Source: a virus
Virus genome (UHGV): UHGV-0364466
Direction: 5' to 3' (one strand)
DNA: 29,223 nt
Shown: positions 3,043-28,562 of the stretch, piece by piece
Layout: each line of letters begins with the position of its first letter
Position numbering within the stretch: the first letter of the stretch is position 1
The notes under the pieces: model-generated
Database searches by the model: none
What the model saw: the letters and a program-made list of their open reading frames with translations, nothing else
What the model was told of the DNA's origin: nothing
Position numbers and translations under genes: made by a program

Positions 3043-3480
3043 TTAAACCCCGTTAAATGCTGCTTTAAACTCATAAGGAATAACGGAACCATCCGGTAAT
3101 GTCAGTGCAATGTAGAGGTATAACCAGCCCTGATGTAACTGTTCCGCCCTGACGTTAATCGCACTTACCCGGCCCGCTGTTTTCAGCCATTCCAGCGACT
3201 CTTCGGCATACCCTCTGGCGCGTTCCAGCGTATCCGGTGTGGCTTTTTCACGTGATAACAGCCACAACCGCGAACCGATGGGGCGGTCGCGGTAACTGTC
3301 ACCCCACCATCCACGGCGATCATCTGAACCATCCGGCAGCGTGTCAGAATCCAGCGCGCGCCGGTCGGTAAACAGGGAGATTGTCACATCGGTTGTCAGG
3401 CTGTCGTCGGTCAGCATATCAATGCCATCCTGTGCAATATCGCCGCGTCCGTTCGTCCAGATAATGGCTAAATCGGTCAT
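3043..3480 (-). CDS. Baseplate protein, Mu gp46-like (GP46 / gp25-W-like)
   Basis: 145 aa, MTDLAIIWTNGRGDIAQDGIDMLTDDSLTTDV...; size and position typical. Confidence 0.8.
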   Translation of the reverse strand: MTDLAIIWTNGRGDIAQDGIDMLTDDSLTTDVTISLFTDRRALDSDTLPDGSDDRRGWWGDSYRDRPIGSRLWLLSREKATPDTLERARGYAEESLEWLKTAGRVSAINVRAEQLHQGWLYLYIALTLPDGSVIPYEFKAAFNGV

Positions 3481-4070
3481 TGCATTGGCCCCGTGGTTCC
3501 GCCGCTGTCGCCACGGTGGATATGCTTATCCGTCGATTTGCCATTGATGATGGCATCCGGGGCAGTAATATTGCTGTCGAACTGGCTTTTACCTTTAACG
3601 CCCAGACCTTTCTGGATCTCAACGTCGCCGGTAAACGTGGTTCTGGGTGTGTCAACGGTCATACTTTCATCAGCGTAAACCTCAACCGTTTTACAGGTAA
3701 TGATGCAGCGTCCGTCCTTTGTCAGCCTGATACGATGCCCCTCGTGGTGGTAAATGCCTGCATCACCCGGTTCAAGATTTGTCGGGCGGTAGCGGCGGTC
3801 TTCCACCACAACAGCAATCCCCTGATCACGTTGTGCGCCCACACAGGCAATCAGCGCCTCTGCGCCCGGCAGGGGAACGCTGAAATGCCCGTAATTTTGC
3901 AGGCGCTCCACTTCATCAGATTCCTCATCATCCAGCAGACCGACCTGCAGGTTCTGAACCTTTCGTCCGTCGTGAATCACGTTAACAACGGCGCGGGCCA
4001 CCATCAGCCGTACACGACGCATCAGCGGCATCAGCAGGCGGTTCAGGGCGGAATCATTTACTCTTTCCAT
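3477..4070 (-). CDS. Baseplate assembly protein V / spike (Mu gp45)
   Basis: 197 aa with gpV-like N-terminus (MRRVRLMVARAVVNVIHDGRKVQNLQV...) and Gly-rich C-terminus. Confidence 0.8.
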   Translation of the reverse strand: MERVNDSALNRLLMPLMRRVRLMVARAVVNVIHDGRKVQNLQVGLLDDEESDEVERLQNYGHFSVPLPGAEALIACVGAQRDQGIAVVVEDRRYRPTNLEPGDAGIYHHEGHRIRLTKDGRCIITCKTVEVYADESMTVDTPRTTFTGDVEIQKGLGVKGKSQFDSNITAPDAIINGKSTDKHIHRGDSGGTTGPMQ

Positions 4071-24316: not shown

Positions 24317-24706
24317 TTACAGAAGTGAGGGCTGGTACTGGCGGTATTTCAGCCGTCGCATCCGGCGAATGGCCTTGTAAACCGTATTGAAAGTGACACC
24401 ATAACGGGTGGTCAGTTCGCTGACGTTGCGACCGTTAAAATCATTCCAGATACGCAAATCCCGAATCAGCGAGTCCAGAACCTGACCGCGTGGAATGTAG
24501 ACCTGACCGCCGCCCAGATGCTTACAGATAGCCACAACAATCTCCAGTGAATGGGCAGGATCAACACCCAGCCGGGACAATTCCCCGCGTAGTAAATCGT
24601 TCAGCTCCGCCAGCAGTGCCGGAAAGCGTGACGTATCCTCTGCGGGATTGTCAAGATGTGCCAGGATGGTGTCATCCTGCAAATCACCAAATAAATCTTC
24701 CGTCAT
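24317..24706 (-). CDS. mor: Middle operon regulator Mor (Mor/C family)
   Basis: 129 aa, MTEDLFGDLQDDTILAHLDNPAEDTSRFPALLAELNDLLRGELSRLGVDPAHSLEIVVAICKHLGGGQVYIP...; ATG verified; abuts the gemA stop. Confidence 0.85.
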   Translation of the reverse strand: MTEDLFGDLQDDTILAHLDNPAEDTSRFPALLAELNDLLRGELSRLGVDPAHSLEIVVAICKHLGGGQVYIPRGQVLDSLIRDLRIWNDFNGRNVSELTTRYGVTFNTVYKAIRRMRRLKYRQYQPSLL

Positions 24707-25254
24707 TGTGCCATCCTCCGCGTCTTTCTGGCATGGGCATAAGCCGCCGTCATGGCATCATAGCCGCGCAGTTCACGACCGGACGGACTGACCGGCAATG
24801 GAAGCCCGTGACGGGAAAAGGCTTCACGAATACAGCGGATGTGCCACTGCTTGAGTGTTTCGAGGACTGTCAGCAGCGTGTCGCCATGACACCACGCCAG
24901 TGTGGAAACGCCCTGTCCGCCGTTGCGTTTCGCGGTCAGGCGCTGAACATATTTATCCAGCGCCACATCACCGCCATCGGTAATAAAACCGTCTTCTGCC
25001 ATCTGCTGCCAGACTTTGTACACCTTCTCGCGGGGCGTGACATGTTCCTTAAAGCGGCGACGTGGATGTTTATTCAGCTTCTTAAAGCCGCGTTCTTTCA
25101 TTGCATCGAGCGTCTGTTCCAGTTGCGTAACCGTCAGCTCGCGGCAACTGGTTTTGCCCGTTTTCTGCATCAGAAAGGCGCGGTAAGTGTCATCGTCGAG
25201 TTGTAGCTCCCGACGGGCGACATGGATTAATTTAATAAGCGATGTGCGATTCAT
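24703..25254 (-). CDS. gemA: GemA-like early protein (DUF1018)
   Basis: Start moved to ATG 25254 (MNRTSLIKLIHVARRELQLDDDTYRAFLMQKTGKTS...), GAGGTG SD at 6 nt; 183 aa. Confidence 0.8.
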   Translation of the reverse strand: MNRTSLIKLIHVARRELQLDDDTYRAFLMQKTGKTSCRELTVTQLEQTLDAMKERGFKKLNKHPRRRFKEHVTPREKVYKVWQQMAEDGFITDGGDVALDKYVQRLTAKRNGGQGVSTLAWCHGDTLLTVLETLKQWHIRCIREAFSRHGLPLPVSPSGRELRGYDAMTAAYAHARKTRRMAQ

Positions 25255-25284
25255 TTGCTCACCTCTCATATTAAGGAATGAGAT

Positions 25285-25701
25285 ATGAAAATTGATTATG
25301 ACGAGATAGCCAGAATATTTGATGTTTTTCTGGAGGCCGACACCGCATTCATTCGACTGGAAGATGTCGGCTGGGAGCGTTCTCAGCGGCACAGCGACAG
25401 CCATCAGAAGCTGGTTTTCCATCTTCTGTTGCTGGTTGAAAATGGTTTTATCAGCAACAGATATCTGGAAACAGGCACCGCAAAAAGCATTGGTCTCACC
25501 CCAACAAGCCTCGGATATTCATATTCAGGCACCAGTGTCAGACTTACACAAGATGGTCATGATTTTGCGAAAGCACTACATCAAAAACCCATTCTTGAGC
25601 GCATAAAACAGGACCTTGCCGACGCCCCGATGACGCTCGTAACAGACGTCGGCAAACAGTGGTTAACCTCGTTTCTTAAAAAGAAACTCGGGATTGAATA
25701 G
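25285..25701 (+). CDS. Hypothetical protein (138 aa) encoded antisense to the early operon
   Basis: ATG 25285 with AAGGAA SD at 6 nt; MKIDYDEIARIFDVFLEADTAFIRLEDVGWERSQRHSDSHQKLVFHLLLLVENGFISNRY...; no minus-strand ORF of 60 aa or more covers the interval; AT-richer than the flanks; 30 bp divergent from gemA, 39-nt 3' overlap with the 103-aa gene. Confidence 0.6.
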   Translation: MKIDYDEIARIFDVFLEADTAFIRLEDVGWERSQRHSDSHQKLVFHLLLLVENGFISNRYLETGTAKSIGLTPTSLGYSYSGTSVRLTQDGHDFAKALHQKPILERIKQDLADAPMTLVTDVGKQWLTSFLKKKLGIE

Positions 25702-25974
25702 TTCCCGGTTCATACGTTGCAGCACATCAAGGGCGGCGACAGCCGCCACTTTATCGTTACCATCAGCAATAGTGCGGAGATTTTCAATAATCCAGTGAGG
25801 ACTCAGTGACTCAGCAATAATGCCAAACCGGTACGCCATGACTTCATCAATAGCTTTTTCATGAGACGGCTCATATACAAAATTCACAAAGTCATGCACT
25901 TCTTTTTTCGGCAAACCACCGGCAATCAGCAGGGCGGCAAGCTCTTCTGATTTTGAAAATACACCATTATTCAT
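25663..25974 (-). CDS. Hypothetical protein (103 aa)
   Basis: ATG 25974 with GGTGAG SD, 1 nt after the stop of the zinc-ribbon gene (coupled); MNNGVFSKSEELAALLIAGGLPKKEVHDFVNFVYEPSHEK... Confidence 0.5.
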   Translation of the reverse strand: MNNGVFSKSEELAALLIAGGLPKKEVHDFVNFVYEPSHEKAIDEVMAYRFGIIAESLSPHWIIENLRTIADGNDKVAAVAALDVLQRMNRELFNPEFLFKKRG

Positions 25975-25975
25975 A

Positions 25976-26671
25976 TCACTCACCTTCACAATTCATGCAC
26001 GCCGTGTCATCGCCCATATCGCAGTGGTTGCATTTCTGCCCACCACAATGAGGGCACTCTTTCAGATATTCAGGGTTTTCATTACCGCAGGTCGGGCATT
26101 CCTGTTTCACCGTGGTGAATGTCCCCAGCCACGAATACGAATTTTCACCGACTGTCTTTTTCCCCGTTATTTCTGAATCAGAACTAATACAGTGTTTTTC
26201 AACCCATGCCACACGTGCTGAATTCAGGTGGCATCTGGCCAATTTGCTTTCGTTTCTGTAATGTTTGCTGTCCCGGTTAAATGGCAATTTCTCATTCAGC
26301 CCTGCTGAGATAAAGTCCGCATGTAATTGTTCTAATGCGGCTTCACTGTCTGCACCGGTTGATTCAAAATAATCGTAAGCATTGGCACATAATCCGGCAG
26401 CCCGGGTAAATACATCATCGCCCGTCTCCATTGCCCCATTCTTTAACCATCGGTTGTAGGCTGTATAAAAACTATAAAGTTGCTTTCTGATACAGGTAGT
26501 GGCAGTTCCGCCATTAACTGACGCTGGCGTAACATAGCCAGCTCTGCATAAAGCAGAACGAAGTATATCCAGAACCTGCCAGGCATCTTCTCCTTCAATC
26601 ACGCTACAGTTTTTGTACACCAGGACGTCCCGGCCACAACTTTTATCAATACCCCAGTCTTCAAATTTCAC
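25976..26671 (-). CDS. Hypothetical protein with C-terminal double zinc ribbon (4 x CxxC)
   Basis: Start placed at GTG 26671 (AGGAGG SD at 6 nt), overlapping the upstream stop; C-terminus CPTCGNENPEYLKECPHCGGQKCNHCDMGDDTACMNCEGE; 231 aa. Confidence 0.6.
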   Translation of the reverse strand: MKFEDWGIDKSCGRDVLVYKNCSVIEGEDAWQVLDILRSALCRAGYVTPASVNGGTATTCIRKQLYSFYTAYNRWLKNGAMETGDDVFTRAAGLCANAYDYFESTGADSEAALEQLHADFISAGLNEKLPFNRDSKHYRNESKLARCHLNSARVAWVEKHCISSDSEITGKKTVGENSYSWLGTFTTVKQECPTCGNENPEYLKECPHCGGQKCNHCDMGDDTACMNCEGE

Positions 26672-27200
26672 AACCAGCCTCCTGCACCACACCCGGTGCT
26701 GATGAAAAATCAATGATGAGATAACGCAGTACATGGTCGGTGATATTCCAGGCGCCTGAACTGCAAATAAACCGCCCCAGCCGGATATCGATATAAGCCA
26801 TCACAAAACGGGGCATTCCCTGTTTGCACATCTCGTCATCCACTTCTGCAACGATGTGAACGGACTCACAGGTCAGTACGCCTGTCGCAAACTCTTTTGC
26901 CAGTGCGGGGATGGTATTACCTTCCACCCAGGGTAATGAGCGACGCCAGTTGCACCACACCGCATCATCAACAGCAGGCTGCTCAGTTGCGTTTCGTCTT
27001 ACCGGCGGCGTCTGACGCGGGCGCGGAACGTCATAAAATCCGTTGCATTCGGTGAGCACTCCGGCATCAACCGCATCACGCAGGAAATACACCATTGACG
27101 AGGGCAGCATATTCATTTTTTCAGCCAGAACCCCGCAGGTCAGGCGTCCGTAAGCCCGTAATAATGTGCTGACACCATTCAGAATTTTTGCATCAACCAT
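26661..27200 (-). CDS. Hypothetical protein with winged-helix-like N-terminus (179 aa)
   Basis: ATG 27200 with GAGGAA SD at 6-7 nt; MVDAKILNGVSTLLRAYGRLTCGVLAEKMNMLPSSMVYFLRDAVDAGVLTE...; first gene downstream of gam after a 98-bp structured spacer. Confidence 0.6.
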   Translation of the reverse strand: MVDAKILNGVSTLLRAYGRLTCGVLAEKMNMLPSSMVYFLRDAVDAGVLTECNGFYDVPRPRQTPPVRRNATEQPAVDDAVWCNWRRSLPWVEGNTIPALAKEFATGVLTCESVHIVAEVDDEMCKQGMPRFVMAYIDIRLGRFICSSGAWNITDHVLRYLIIDFSSAPGVVQEAGCEI

Positions 27201-27298
27201 GTTTTATTCCTCAGTAATCTGTTTCAGGCGCGAGCAATCCCCTGACGCATCGCGCCATAATTAAAAGAATGTGAATTAATTAAATATTAATGGTGGTA

Positions 27299-27823
27299 TT
27301 AAATACCGGCTTCCTGTTCAAACGGAATAATGGAAAAATCTTCAATTCCCGATTTAACCGTAATTCCGGCAACACCTGCGACGGCTTTTGGTTCCAGTAA
27401 AATCGCCTCCTTGTTGATTTCCTGCTTCGTGCGAATAAAGCGTTGCAGGCCAAGACGCTCCAGCGTTTCCATCACTGCATCCATACCACGAATACTTACT
27501 GATGGTGGACGGACCCGCCACGATACATCACCGGTGACAAGATTCGCCGTCTTCACTTTGCCGCCGTTCGTCAGTTCGTCGCGGTTCGCTTCACACCATC
27601 CCTGAACGCCTTTTGAAAGGGTTTCAATATCGGTTTTAATCGGTGCAATCCGGGCCGCAAATTTCTCCGTAATTTCCGCGATGGCATCATTCATTTCCGT
27701 TTCCAGACGTGATGCTTCGCGCTGTAAATCCCCGATGCGTTTAATATCGGTAATCACCGCATCGCGGTTTTGTGGCATATAAGCCGCTGCGGCACTCTTG
27801 ATACGTTTTGCTGGTTTAGCCAT
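27299..27823 (-). CDS. gam: Host-nuclease inhibitor Gam (Mu Gam, DNA-end binding)
   Basis: 174 aa, MAKPAKRIKSAAAAY...DIKRIGDLQREASRLETEMNDAIAEITEKFAARIAPIKTDIETLSKGVQGWCEANRDELTNGGKVKTANLVTGDVSWRV...; recognised as essentially Mu Gam from memory; ATG verified. Confidence 0.9.
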   Translation of the reverse strand: MAKPAKRIKSAAAAYMPQNRDAVITDIKRIGDLQREASRLETEMNDAIAEITEKFAARIAPIKTDIETLSKGVQGWCEANRDELTNGGKVKTANLVTGDVSWRVRPPSVSIRGMDAVMETLERLGLQRFIRTKQEINKEAILLEPKAVAGVAGITVKSGIEDFSIIPFEQEAGI

Positions 27824-27842
27824 AAATTAAAGCTCCTGTTAA

Positions 27843-28130
27843 TTAATATCCGCTGTATACAATGCTGGATACAGCCCGATTGCTTAATTCCATCTTTCGG
27901 GCAATGACATGAATATCCAGCCCTTCTTTATAAAGTTCACGACATAAATATTTGTCGTGTTCACTGATTCGGTATACACACAATGATATTCCGTGCCTTC
28001 TGGCATGTGCCCGGAGGGCGGTTGTGGCGACTTTCAGTTTTTCCGCCATTTCTTCAACGGTCATTTTCCCGACGTTGGCTTCGATAAATTCCCGGTCTTC
28101 GCGTGACCAGCGCTTACGATTACACTTCAT
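27843..28130 (-). CDS. Hypothetical small DNA-binding protein with two HTH-like segments
   Basis: Start at ATG 28130 (MKCNRKRWSREDREFIEANVGKMTVEEMAEKLKVATTALRAHARRHG...YLCRELYKEGLDIHVIARKMELSNRAVSSIV); GGTGG SD; alternative ATG at 28142. Confidence 0.55.
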   Translation of the reverse strand: MKCNRKRWSREDREFIEANVGKMTVEEMAEKLKVATTALRAHARRHGISLCVYRISEHDKYLCRELYKEGLDIHVIARKMELSNRAVSSIVYSGY

Positions 28131-28142
28131 GTCAGCCACCAT

Positions 28143-28562
28143 TCAGTACAGCAGAGGCTCGCGCAGTGATGCCGGAATATGCCGCAGCGATAACTGAACC
28201 GCTTTCAGGGCAAGCGAGGAATAACAGCAGCGCGCCCAGCCTTTTGCCATTAACCGGTAATCGCGCCAGATACGCTGCCACATTTCACGGGCCTCAGGGT
28301 CTGATGCGCAGATGTATTCCCGGTCCATGACGTACTCCCATAAATCCACGTTGAACGCACCGCCAAATGCAATGGCGCGGGATATGCTTTCGCCGCAATA
28401 ACGCGCACAAATGCTGTAATGGTCGAAAGCAATCAGGTAAGTCTTTTCACCACAATCATCAACTTTCCGGGCGCAAATAAACTCGCGTAATTCACCACCG
28501 TTGTTATTGCGTTCCTGAATTCGGATTAATGCCTGAATTTCATTTCGGATTTTGACGTTCAT
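28143..28562 (-). CDS. Hypothetical Cys-rich protein (139 aa)
   Basis: ATG 28562 with AAGGAA SD; MNVKIRNEIQALIRIQERNNNGGELREFICARKVDDCGEKTYLIAFDHYSICARYCGE...; stop abuts the next start. Confidence 0.55.
   Translation of the reverse strand: MNVKIRNEIQALIRIQERNNNGGELREFICARKVDDCGEKTYLIAFDHYSICARYCGESISRAIAFGGAFNVDLWEYVMDREYICASDPEAREMWQRIWRDYRLMAKGWARCCYSSLALKAVQLSLRHIPASLREPLLY

Follow-up and report, generated by a model that had tools for sequence, protein, structure and literature searches.

Genes and features between gam and gemA

The stretch of DNA analyzed here (hereafter the window) comprises the 29,223 nucleotides of the virus genome UHGV-0364466, and this report is concerned with the interval between its gam and gemA genes (Table 1). 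Three tightly coupled minus-strand genes of the early operon had been predicted there from the nucleotide sequence, and both the reading frames and the coupling of their start and stop codons were confirmed. The GTG proposed as start of the second gene lies in an 11-nt overlap with the end of the first and is preceded by a Shine-Dalgarno sequence (Table 1), the same 696-nt gene is annotated by RefSeq in an E. coli prophage, and the third gene follows the stop codon of the second as predicted. A longer reading frame for the second gene, starting at an ATG (26734), has no Shine-Dalgarno sequence. Compared with diverged copies all three ORFs had dN/dS ratios of 0.1-0.3 (0.18-0.25 for the 103-aa gene), and Shine-Dalgarno sequences precede their starts; they are genuine protein genes under purifying selection, and their transcription runs the same way as that of the early operon. 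The block had also been described as AT-richer than the structural genes; this holds for the N-terminal part of the 231-aa gene (45% GC) and for the 103-aa gene (43.6%), but not for the 179-aa gene, with 52% GC against 53% for the window.

Table 1. Positions of genes, domains, mosaic junctions and predicted structures in and around the gam-gemA interval of the window.
Feature	Position	Strand	Remarks
gemA	24703..25254	-	Pfam GemA 7.9e-31; conserved anchor downstream of the variable slot
DUF2513-like ORF, 138 aa	25285..25701	+	phrog_585 3.2e-31; convergent
103-aa early protein (phrog_1988)	25663..25974	-	ATG 1 nt past the TGA of the 231-aa gene
Terminator-like hairpin	25732..25747	+	consensus scan only; 31 nt past the DUF2513 stop, within the 103-aa gene
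231-aa gene, 696 nt	25976..26671	-	GTG start; AGGAGG at 6-nt spacing
C-terminal 4xCxxC zinc ribbon	25976..26155	-	Mu gp13 equivalent, in-frame fusion
Right mosaic junction	26147		similarity to Mu-type gp13 restarts
Central all-helical domain X (aa ~56-172)	26156..26506	-	motifs FYxAYxxWL, GLCxN, LPFN, YxxE, NxxRxxW
N-terminal part (aa 1-55)	26507..26671	-	AF2: beta-hairpin and helix, low to moderate confidence; exclusive to the 231-aa protein type
gp11-like gene, 179 aa	26661..27200	-	ATG; GAGGAA ahead
Left mosaic junction	26678		Mu similarity stops, 17 nt before the gp11 stop (blastn of window vs Mu)
gam-gp11 spacer, 98 bp	27201..27298	-	AU-rich stretch, hairpin, then Shine-Dalgarno GAGGAA (27212-27207)
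Two-tier hairpin	27227..27256	-	outer stem GGCGCGA/TCGCGCC (N16 between), inner 5-bp stem, apical AGGG
gam (174 aa)	27299..27823	-	Pfam Phage_Mu_Gam 4.1e-42; conserved anchor upstream of the variable slot

The three proteins were searched against Pfam, NCBIfam, PHROGs, PADLOC, the PDB (by sequence and by fold), BFVD and the literature, and no relative with a known role was found, in agreement with the unknown function assigned to the genes by the original prediction. The family libraries (Pfam, NCBIfam, PHROGs, PADLOC) returned only the Gp11_C domain and unnamed PHROGs, the PDB sequence search with the three proteins and the zinc ribbon returned nothing except generic zinc ribbons, and the BFVD fold search returned uncharacterised phage proteins only. 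The PADLOC defence models had no match at E ≤ 0.01 to the three proteins or to the DUF2513-like ORF. The homologs in Mu are gp11 and gp13, both uncharacterised, so that the homology to characterised Mu early proteins which would have spoken against the original prediction was not found. A literature search turned up no work on the function of Mu gp11-gp14 or the matching PHROGs. The semi-essential genes of Mu have been described as mostly without known function (PMC3820752).

The 179-aa protein shares 93% identity with Mu gp11 (Mup11) over 176 residues, matches Gp11_C (PF25754) at residues 90-166 with 131.2 bits (cut-off 27, E 1.7e-38) and is encoded directly 3' of gam, as expected for the gp11 family in a Mu-type early operon; similarity and position identify it as an ortholog of Mu gp11, which follows gam behind the same 98-bp spacer. 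The last ~15 residues differ from Mu gp11 because a cassette junction falls within the 3'-terminal part of the gene. A winged-helix N-domain (residues ~1-55), a disordered Pro/Arg-rich linker (57-89) and the beta-rich Gp11_C domain were distinguished. The winged-helix-like N-terminus that had been predicted was recovered as a three-helix winged-helix fold (MarR/Z-alpha-like); fold matches of the gp11 model were to winged-helix domains only, and the C-domain matched nothing in the same search. DUF5420 was considered as a gp11 paralog and rejected (E 0.059, not significant).

The 103-aa protein is 86-100% identical to SfMu gp14 and to an extra gene of Yersinia Mu-type phages, and had no match in Pfam, NCBIfam or the PDB. 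The versions in SfMu and in Yersinia vB_YpM_5 and its relatives (the latter 102 aa) have 86-88% identity and occupy the same position after gp13, while the C-terminal 13 residues differ. The gene is a cassette shared with SfMu and the Yersinia Mu-type phages and missing from Mu. Its identification as Mu gp14 was rejected: the two gave no BLASTP alignment at E ≤ 100, and other phages have both genes as neighbors. In SfMu and Yersinia phages a Mu gp14 homolog comes next, whereas in the window the next ORF is the convergent DUF2513-like one.

This ORF, which the original prediction did not mention, lies between the block and gemA and has 39 nt in common with the 3' end of the 103-aa gene. It is labeled a DUF2513 protein by RefSeq, scored below the threshold of Pfam DUF2513 (0.017), takes the place of Mu gp14 and gp15, and was seen beside genes of the 103-aa type (p103) only.

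Cassette exchange in the gam-gemA slot

The window gam product is 99% identical to Mu Gam, and nucleotide similarity to Mu continues at 98.5% as far as the left junction; from the right junction onward the window matches another Mu-type locus (L005) at 99.4%. The segment in between measures ~530 bp, compared with ~535 bp for gp12 in Mu. The 231-aa gene thus corresponds in position, and nearly in DNA length, to Mu gp12 plus gp13 (Mup12, Mup13). In Mu, gp13 is a separate 60-aa ORF overlapping the end of gp12, whereas here it forms the C-terminus of the 231-aa protein, and no in-frame internal start remains from which a free gp13 could be made. From these alignments the 231-aa gene arose by a cassette swap of ~530 bp, in which gp12 went out and domain X came in, in frame with the gp13 ribbon. 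The alternative of domain X as a diverged gp12 was rejected (19% identity in a forced alignment; hhalign probability 0.1).

The four CxxC pairs announced for the end of the 231-aa protein are present (CPTC, CPHC, CNHC, CMNC), and residues 176-231 share 91-95% identity with gp13 of Mu, SfMu and D108. The double zinc ribbon model PF12773 scored 17.2 bits with a cut-off of 27.3, below its gathering score, as did PF00684 (DnaJ_CXXCXGXG; 19 bits, E 0.0017, cut-off 32.7) and PF14354 (Lar_restr_allev; 11.6 bits, E 0.34, gathering score 28.6). In the AF2 model the ribbon has pLDDT values below 50. The N-terminal module gave no match to PF14354 either, and the reading of the N-terminal 55 residues as a degenerate Lar-like module, drawn from motifs of the fusion partners, is no more than a lead, as Pfam lends it no support.

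Domain X (~105 aa, all-helical in the AF2 model) comprises 1,687 clusters at 50% identity, and had no Pfam family, no solved fold relative, and no likeness in sequence or fold to any enzyme. It is found commonly in phages of Proteobacteria, both lytic and temperate; outside the fusion, lytic coliphages encode it among their small early genes in the form of small free-standing proteins, of which one genome frequently has several. Its fusion partners include a dATP/dGTP pyrophosphohydrolase domain (PF04447), and in protein P0068 it is joined to a genuine Lar-type zinc ribbon (7.6e-08) in the same domain order as in the 231-aa protein. The gp13-type ribbon is in turn joined to an unrelated N-terminus in protein P0012. 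Because it is a separate ORF in Mu, is fused to domain X here and follows another N-terminus in P0012, the ribbon appears to be a shared module.

Gene content at this position was compared across Mu-like phages. Of 127 Mu-like loci, 103 had gemA downstream of gam, with intervals of 106-3574 bp encoding 76 protein clusters, only 10 of which had a Pfam match of any kind. The few recognisable families were HU, SNase, a YfbR-like nucleotidase and DUFs; known anti-defence families (anti-restriction, anti-CRISPR, methylase) were absent from these Pfam scans of the slot clusters of other Mu-like phages. Many Mu-like prophages had nothing or one small ORF in this place, and intervals as short as 106-178 bp occur. 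The resident met with most constantly is gp11, which the loci outside the enterobacterial clade lack.

Each of the three genes assorts independently across ~55 enterobacterial Mu-type prophages. Four loci have the architecture of the window; others have gp11-gp12-gp13-gp14, gp11-gp12-gp13-p103-gp14, gp11-X(129 aa)-gemA, gp11-p103-like-gemA or DUF5420-gp11-gemA, or lack gp11. The three-gene module that had been postulated is therefore not borne out: the genes are independently exchangeable cassettes and are not co-inherited. The region as such is already known, and the window holds a new mosaic variant of it. On balance, we regard the interval as a hypervariable slot for accessory genes, anchored by gam and gemA, within the semi-essential early operon of a transposable prophage of Mu type.

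A conserved hairpin downstream of gam

The 98-bp spacer ahead of the gp11-like gene and its inverted repeat GGCGCGA-N16-TCGCGCC were found as predicted. The spacer has 37.8% GC and is near-identical in Mu, D108 and the Yersinia Mu-type phages. When the spacer was shuffled, 0.06% of the shuffles gave a repeat of 7 bp with 6 or more GC pairs. The folding energy of the hairpin was -17.4 kcal/mol (z -2.56). A near-palindrome had also been predicted over the gam stop codon; it is present as GGTATT-T-AATACC (27307-27295), but an arm of at least 6 occurred in 9% of shuffles and it is lost in Kluyvera-type relatives, so that we consider it unremarkable and consistent with chance.

The hairpin is kept in eight lineages, whose gam products are 55-99% identical, with compensatory C-G to U-A and G.U changes. 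In the alignment 81.9% of the cells were paired compared with 31-48% when the partners were slid, figures that come from eight independent lineages with little variation in the core five pairs; related sequences devoid of structure are known to exceed the shuffle control as well. The apical loop is unusually conserved (GCGTCAGGG). Each locus has a single copy: searching the window and 77 other loci, a covariance model recovered its training instances only and no extra hairpin, and Rfam gave no relevant match at E ≤ 1 for positions 25000-28200. The hairpin stands ~20 nt upstream of the next gene, and at least nine different genes occupy that place. The earlier view of it as the 5' element of the three-gene block is accordingly not supported, as it is conserved with gam; it is a conserved structured element at the boundary between core and accessory genes, just 3' of gam and travelling with gam. 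A Rho-independent terminator was considered and rejected, since no U-tract follows the stem, which is continued by UGAAACAG, and the terminator scan did not report it.

Most likely, the hairpin is an RNA element of the early transcript. The inverted repeat might instead act at the DNA level, either as the operator site of a dimeric regulator, of which the gp11 winged helix would be an example, or as a linker promoting cassette exchange, with no RNA function. It is a near-perfect DNA palindrome adjoining the gene of a winged-helix protein, it lies exactly at a mosaic boundary (similarity to SfMu stops 5 nt past the hairpin), and the conservation of the loop GCGTCAGGG suits recognition of a sequence more than of a shape. 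However, the hairpin is also kept where gp11 is missing (Aeromonas L043, L110, L112, L114, L115, L141), its stems vary in sequence and register yet stay paired, and no sigma-70-like promoter was predicted nearby. Moreover, two loci (L112 and L116) have G.U pairs, which only the RNA of the sense strand can form; on the opposite strand, as in a DNA palindrome, A.C mismatches would take their place. We therefore hold a purely DNA-level site to be unlikely, while recombination at a shared linker could account for part of the conservation.

As an RNA element, the hairpin together with the AU-rich stretch preceding it may serve as a punctuation mark for processing or stability of the early mRNA. Either the message next to gam would be shielded by it against 3' exonucleases, or it would cap the 5' end that RNase E cleavage leaves on the accessory message; in this way it would determine the dosage of the core genes relative to the accessory ones. 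It is thus a candidate means by which a long phage operon could dose the two groups of genes differently.

Putative functions and known systems

The original prediction had seen in the 179-aa and 231-aa proteins a nucleic-acid-binding pair. The charge of the two domains gives this little support: the ribbon is acidic, with a pI of 4.4 and 10 D/E to 3 K/R, whereas the winged helix is neutral (pI 6.0, 5 K+R in 56 residues); the zinc-ribbon matches in Pfam, as described above, all lie below threshold. The low pI of the ribbon leads us to favor protein binding. We propose that the three proteins would bind host factors, in host takeover or counter-defence, and would not be enzymes of phage replication, with the acidic gp13 ribbon as a shared protein-protein anchor and with specificity supplied by an N-terminal partner that varies (gp12, domain X or others). 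The fusion also suggests a partnership in Mu itself, in which gp12 and gp13 may act together with the ribbon as the constant partner. The turnover of cassettes makes a host-interaction or counter-defence role plausible, although the HU, SNase, YfbR-like nucleotidase and DUF genes of the same slot would suit a role in DNA metabolism equally well.

A role in replication would be at hand if at least one of the three proteins were the classical "arm" function (amplified replication of Mu), which was never assigned to a gene; it would boost replicative transposition directly, for instance with the winged helix of gp11 binding DNA. Older literature would place "arm" on the ORFs between gam and gemA. 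The region houses semi-essential functions still unassigned, gp11 with its winged helix is the resident most constantly found directly after gam, and HU-like and nuclease-like genes share the slot in other Mu-like phages. On the other hand, the winged helix is not basic, gp11 is missing outside the enterobacterial clade, many Mu-like prophages have little or nothing in the interval to fill the role, and the slot holds no conserved transposition machinery; the chance that "arm" is among the three proteins seems small.

With somewhat lower probability still, domain X would be an enzyme or a binder of small molecules such as nucleotides or signaling molecules, and the zinc ribbon would merely stabilize it. 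Across the 1,687 clusters a set of almost unchanging residues (Cys, Glu, Asn, Arg, Pro and Trp; invariant are Cys95, Glu141 and Arg153) gathers at the ends of helices, and the conserved polar ones (Cys, Glu, Asn, Arg), at loop and helix ends, could mark a catalytic or ligand pocket and not a binding surface; the PF04447 fusions and the YfbR-like nucleotidase found in the slot elsewhere point the same way. Against this stand the small size and all-helical fold of the domain and its lack of resemblance to any enzyme. That the cassettes are lysogen-benefit genes, expressed at a low level from the prophage for superinfection exclusion or defence against other phages and not for the lytic cycle, is very improbable. 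In its favor, basal Pe transcription runs through the semi-essential genes in lysogens and a possible benefit to the host has been discussed (PMC3820752). Prophage defence hotspots, too, typically show a rapid turnover of cassettes, and the adjoining opposite-strand DUF2513 ORF resembles a lysogen-expressed moron. Against it, PADLOC matched none of the four proteins, the three genes are translationally coupled and belong to the early operon of the lytic cycle, and domain X is frequent in phages that are strictly lytic and to which the protection of a lysogen brings no gain.

The preferred reading remains one of host-directed cassettes behind a hairpin that punctuates the early transcript. In its full form, domain X would represent a new class of phage counter-defence or host-takeover proteins, present in Mu-type phages as a ribbon-anchored fusion, and the hairpin a new cis-regulatory RNA controlling core versus accessory expression; we put this forward tentatively, as an outcome we would not expect to hold in all its parts. 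Mu is a paradigm phage in which the genes between gam and gemA have been without an assigned function for decades. The cassettes can be deleted or swapped separately, and owing to the conserved anchors of the slot the natural variants already serve as controls. As domain X is common in phages of Proteobacteria, one function assigned to it would annotate well over a thousand clusters. Should none of these readings hold, the region would be one more mosaic variant of hypothetical early genes.

Several known systems offer points of comparison. The Lar ribbon (PF14354), the CxxCxGxG fingers of DnaJ type and anti-TRAP are likewise small Cys-rich zinc modules of phage and prophage accessory proteins, and by analogy the gp13-type ribbon, which reaches the threshold for neither Lar nor DnaJ_CXXCXGXG, may be a protein-binding module. 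Hairpins that stabilize or process mRNA between cistrons include the REP hairpins of malE-malF and 5' hairpins blocking RNase E. The hairpin downstream of gam differs from REP elements in being single-copy and not a dispersed repeat and in its conserved apical sequence; it resembles both kinds in being stable, GC-rich, free of a U-tract and placed between the cistrons of an operon, with an AU-rich single-stranded stretch ahead. Mu-like Pseudomonas phages carry anti-CRISPR loci, which are islands of accessory and anti-defence genes. The gam-gemA slot lies in the early operon and not in the late region, and none of its members matches a known anti-defence protein; common to both are small genes of fast turnover, without known function, held at a fixed place between conserved anchors.

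Gene content of the gam-gemA interval

The Mu-type prophage in the window lies in reverse orientation (see table). The three genes downstream of gam were found to be tightly coupled minus-strand ORFs, as the original prediction had described: the gene of the 231-aa protein starts at a GTG that overlaps the upstream gene by 11 nt and is preceded by AGGAGG at 6-nt spacing, and the 103-aa gene begins with an ATG placed 1 nt past the TGA of the 231-aa gene. These two genes were also annotated by RefSeq in E. coli prophages, and all three ORFs were under purifying selection when compared with diverged copies (dN/dS 0.11-0.29, where dS > 0.15).

Features of the gam-gemA region, listed in minus-strand order from 28142 to 24317
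Feature	Coordinates	Strand	Remark
gp9-like gene		minus
gam	27299-27823	minus
Spacer			98 bp
Inverted repeat	27256-27227		in spacer
179-aa gene	26661-27200	minus
Mosaic junction	26678		blastn
231-aa gene	25976-26671	minus
N-terminal 55 residues of 231-aa protein	26507-26671	minus
Mosaic junction	26147		blastn
103-aa gene	25663-25974	minus
Terminator-like hairpin	25732-25747	plus	after 138-aa ORF, within 103-aa gene
138-aa ORF	25285-25701	plus	convergent, between 103-aa gene and gemA
gemA	24703-25254	minus
mor		minus

The mechanical ORF call for gemA (24703-25422, 239 aa) uses an upstream ATG; evidence for the ATG at 25254 (183 aa) comes from the homologue in RefSeq and from a GAGGTGAG Shine-Dalgarno sequence. 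With that start, gemA and the 138-aa ORF diverge from points just 30 bp apart. The region that carries the 'semi-early' promoter in Mu is replaced in the window.

All parts of the block were searched against 127 Mu-like loci using tblastn, and every combination of them was seen; contrary to the original reading, the three genes are not a module. With X denoting the central domain of the 231-aa protein and p103 the 103-aa protein type, the architectures included gp11-gp12-gp13-gp14 (Mu), the same with p103 inserted, gp11-gp12-gp13-gemA, gp11-X-gemA, gp11-p103-like-gemA, gp11-gp14-like-gemA, DUF5420-gp11-gemA, and loci without gp11. In other E. coli Mu-type prophages a stand-alone 129-aa domain X occurs as gam-gp11-X-gemA, without the ribbon and without a third gene, and another contig carries the exact 231-aa protein followed by a 121-aa gene instead of the 103-aa gene; four IMG/VR contigs share the architecture of the window. 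In loci from outside the Enterobacterales both anchors, gam and gemA, were kept and none of the three genes was present. Across the 103 loci with both anchors the interval measured 106-3574 bp and held 76 protein clusters, 10 of which had any Pfam match (DUF7168, DUF5131, Gp11_C, DUF7220, HU (Bac_DNA_binding), DUF2786, YfbR-like nucleotidase, DUF5406, SNase, and SutA-RBD). Since the anchors persist while the length and content of the interval vary, the gam-gemA region is a hypervariable cassette slot with conserved anchors on either side.

The survey also showed that a 515-bp stretch of SfMu without an annotated gene (NC_027382, ~3336-3790) gives a 96% tblastn match to Mu gp12 and is a gene that annotation missed or else a pseudogene; the annotated gp12 of SfMu is actually the gp11 ortholog and its gp11 a DUF5420 insertion. 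A second E. coli Mu-type lineage (loci L056-L059) is nearly unchanged versus Mu from kil through gp11, differs in its lysis genes (Glyco_hydro_108 and PG_binding_3 instead of the Mu lysozyme), has an additional TraR/DksA-type zinc-finger gene, and has nothing but a stand-alone domain X of 129 aa between gp11 and gemA.

Proteins encoded in the block

The 179-aa protein, with 93% identity to Mu gp11 and matches to Pfam Gp11_C (E 1.7e-38) and phrog_1949, is the ortholog of gp11. Its AlphaFold model (mean pLDDT 64) comprises an N-domain of three helices, a Pro/Arg-rich linker that is disordered (57-89), and a C-domain rich in beta structure.

Judged by its sequence relationships, the 231-aa protein is a chimera. 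Over residues 176-231 it is 91-95% identical to gp13, the 60-aa zinc-ribbon protein of Mu, D108, and SfMu, and residues 1-175 showed no relationship to gp12, which holds that position in Mu; between the mosaic junctions a ~530-bp segment stands in place of ~535 bp of Mu. In Mu the gp13 ribbon has an ORF of its own, which overlaps gp12; in the window the ribbon is joined to domain X and in the protein P0012 to an unrelated N-terminus, and domain X is also fused to a Lar-type ribbon. These fusions suggest a module, the ribbon, that stays constant and pairs with an upstream protein that varies. Short modules with a GWNACRxAML-like motif, the C-terminal helix of Lar-type zinc ribbons, occur in the fusion partners of domain X (proteins P0007, P0008, P0012, and P0068). 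The first 55 residues of the 231-aa protein (SCG...NCS...EDAWQVL...) resemble a cysteine-poor remnant of such a module, for which Pfam gave no support.

Domain X (residues ~60-165) was modelled as a helical bundle (pLDDT > 95). Word-indexed searches identified 75 enterobacterial relatives, some stand-alone (129-158 aa) and others fused to DUF551, a dATP/dGTP pyrophosphohydrolase domain, or a Lar-type zinc ribbon, and an exhaustive profile search retrieved 1,687 clusters at E <= 1e-3, the majority stand-alone proteins of ~100-110 aa and some tandem duplications. None of 61 sampled members had a Pfam match over the domain, and the BFVD matches were uncharacterised phage proteins only (host genera Escherichia, Shigella, Rhizobium, Achromobacter, Burkholderia, Delftia, and Pectobacterium). 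Near-invariant residues include FY, W, GLC, PF, E, N, R, and W, among others. In lytic coliphages domain X is a small gene amid small genes near replication genes, in up to four places per genome. The size of this family and the absence of any annotation are noteworthy.

The 103-aa protein was considered as Mu gp14 and rejected, as BLASTP found no similarity; an additional gene present in SfMu, Yersinia Mu-type phages, and E. coli prophages matches it at 86-100% identity. The 138-aa ORF is DUF2513-like (phrog_585, 3.2e-31), opposes the direction of the early operon, and runs into the final 39 nt of the 103-aa gene, so that 13 codons of each lie on common DNA. It occupies the place of Mu gp14 and gp15, was seen only beside p103-type genes among the loci examined, and had no predicted sigma-70-like promoter.

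The hairpin downstream of gam

The inverted repeat GGCGCGA-N16-TCGCGCC forms a two-tier hairpin whose apical loop is AGGG (dG -17.4 kcal/mol, z -2.56), lacks a U-tract, and has no Rfam match; an equally GC-rich 7-bp repeat arose in 0.06% of spacer shuffles. Hairpins of the same design follow gam in lineages with 55-79% identical gam (Kluyvera-type prophages, five other viral contigs, and an Aeromonas prophage). Their stems vary in sequence and register (TTCGGCGC/GCGCCGAA, CCGGCGT/ACGCCGG, ATTTGGCGTAA/TTACGCCAAAT), and in three sequences U-A replaces C-G at one core pair. In a 14-sequence alignment 81.9% of cells were paired versus 31-48% with slid partners, the covariation score was reached in 7 of 500 shuffles, and folding energies in all eight lineages were -16.5 to -22.4 kcal/mol. 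A covariance model found exactly one hairpin per locus, none elsewhere in the 29-kb window, and no instance outside its training lineages. The GGTATT-T-AATACC palindrome at the gam stop was within chance (9% of shuffles) and not conserved.

The hairpin had been read as the leader of the three-gene block; it belongs instead behind gam, preceding at least nine different genes, and the similarity of SfMu and several prophages to Mu stops 5 nt past it, where a different gene follows. Two features would place its action in the early transcript: its G.U pairs form only on the sense strand, and it keeps a fixed place relative to the next ribosome-binding site (always ~18-25 nt ahead of the next start codon, with the Shine-Dalgarno sequence between). 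Its most likely role, in combination with the AU-rich stretch ahead of it, is to mark a boundary of processing or stability between core and accessory genes.

In Betaproteobacteria, Mu-like prophages have a hairpin of another kind directly behind the gam stop (loci L036 6475-6498, L118, L121, L125, L137, and L038) with covarying stems (GATGGCG/CGCCATC, CAGCCCG/CGGGCTG, GATAGCG/CGCTATC), several with a conserved loop TTAAAnnTAG and a short T-run 7-9 nt on. Mu-like phages may generally have a structured element behind gam.

Putative roles and relation to Mu-type phages

The proposed nucleic-acid-binding pair is doubtful: the ribbon is acidic (pI 4.4) and the gp11 winged helix neutral (pI 6.0), and protein binding therefore seems more likely. 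The high turnover, small size, and lower GC and the presence of domain X in lytic phages are consistent with putative host-interaction or counter-defence genes; the few recognisable families elsewhere in the slot point as much to DNA metabolism.

The semi-essential genes have been described as largely of unknown function (PMC3820752), and our literature search found no study of gp11-gp14. The original interpretation holds in part, for the genes are uncharacterised, but they do not form a module with its own leader, and it is doubtful that their products bind nucleic acids. The block itself is not new, since its genes are already listed in public databases, where they stand as hypothetical proteins and in unnamed PHROGs. 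Three points do not appear to have been described before: that the stretch can be read as a cassette slot, that the replacement of gp12 is fused to gp13, and that a hairpin is conserved behind gam. The region represents, in a new mosaic form, a part of Mu-type phages that is known but still unexplained.
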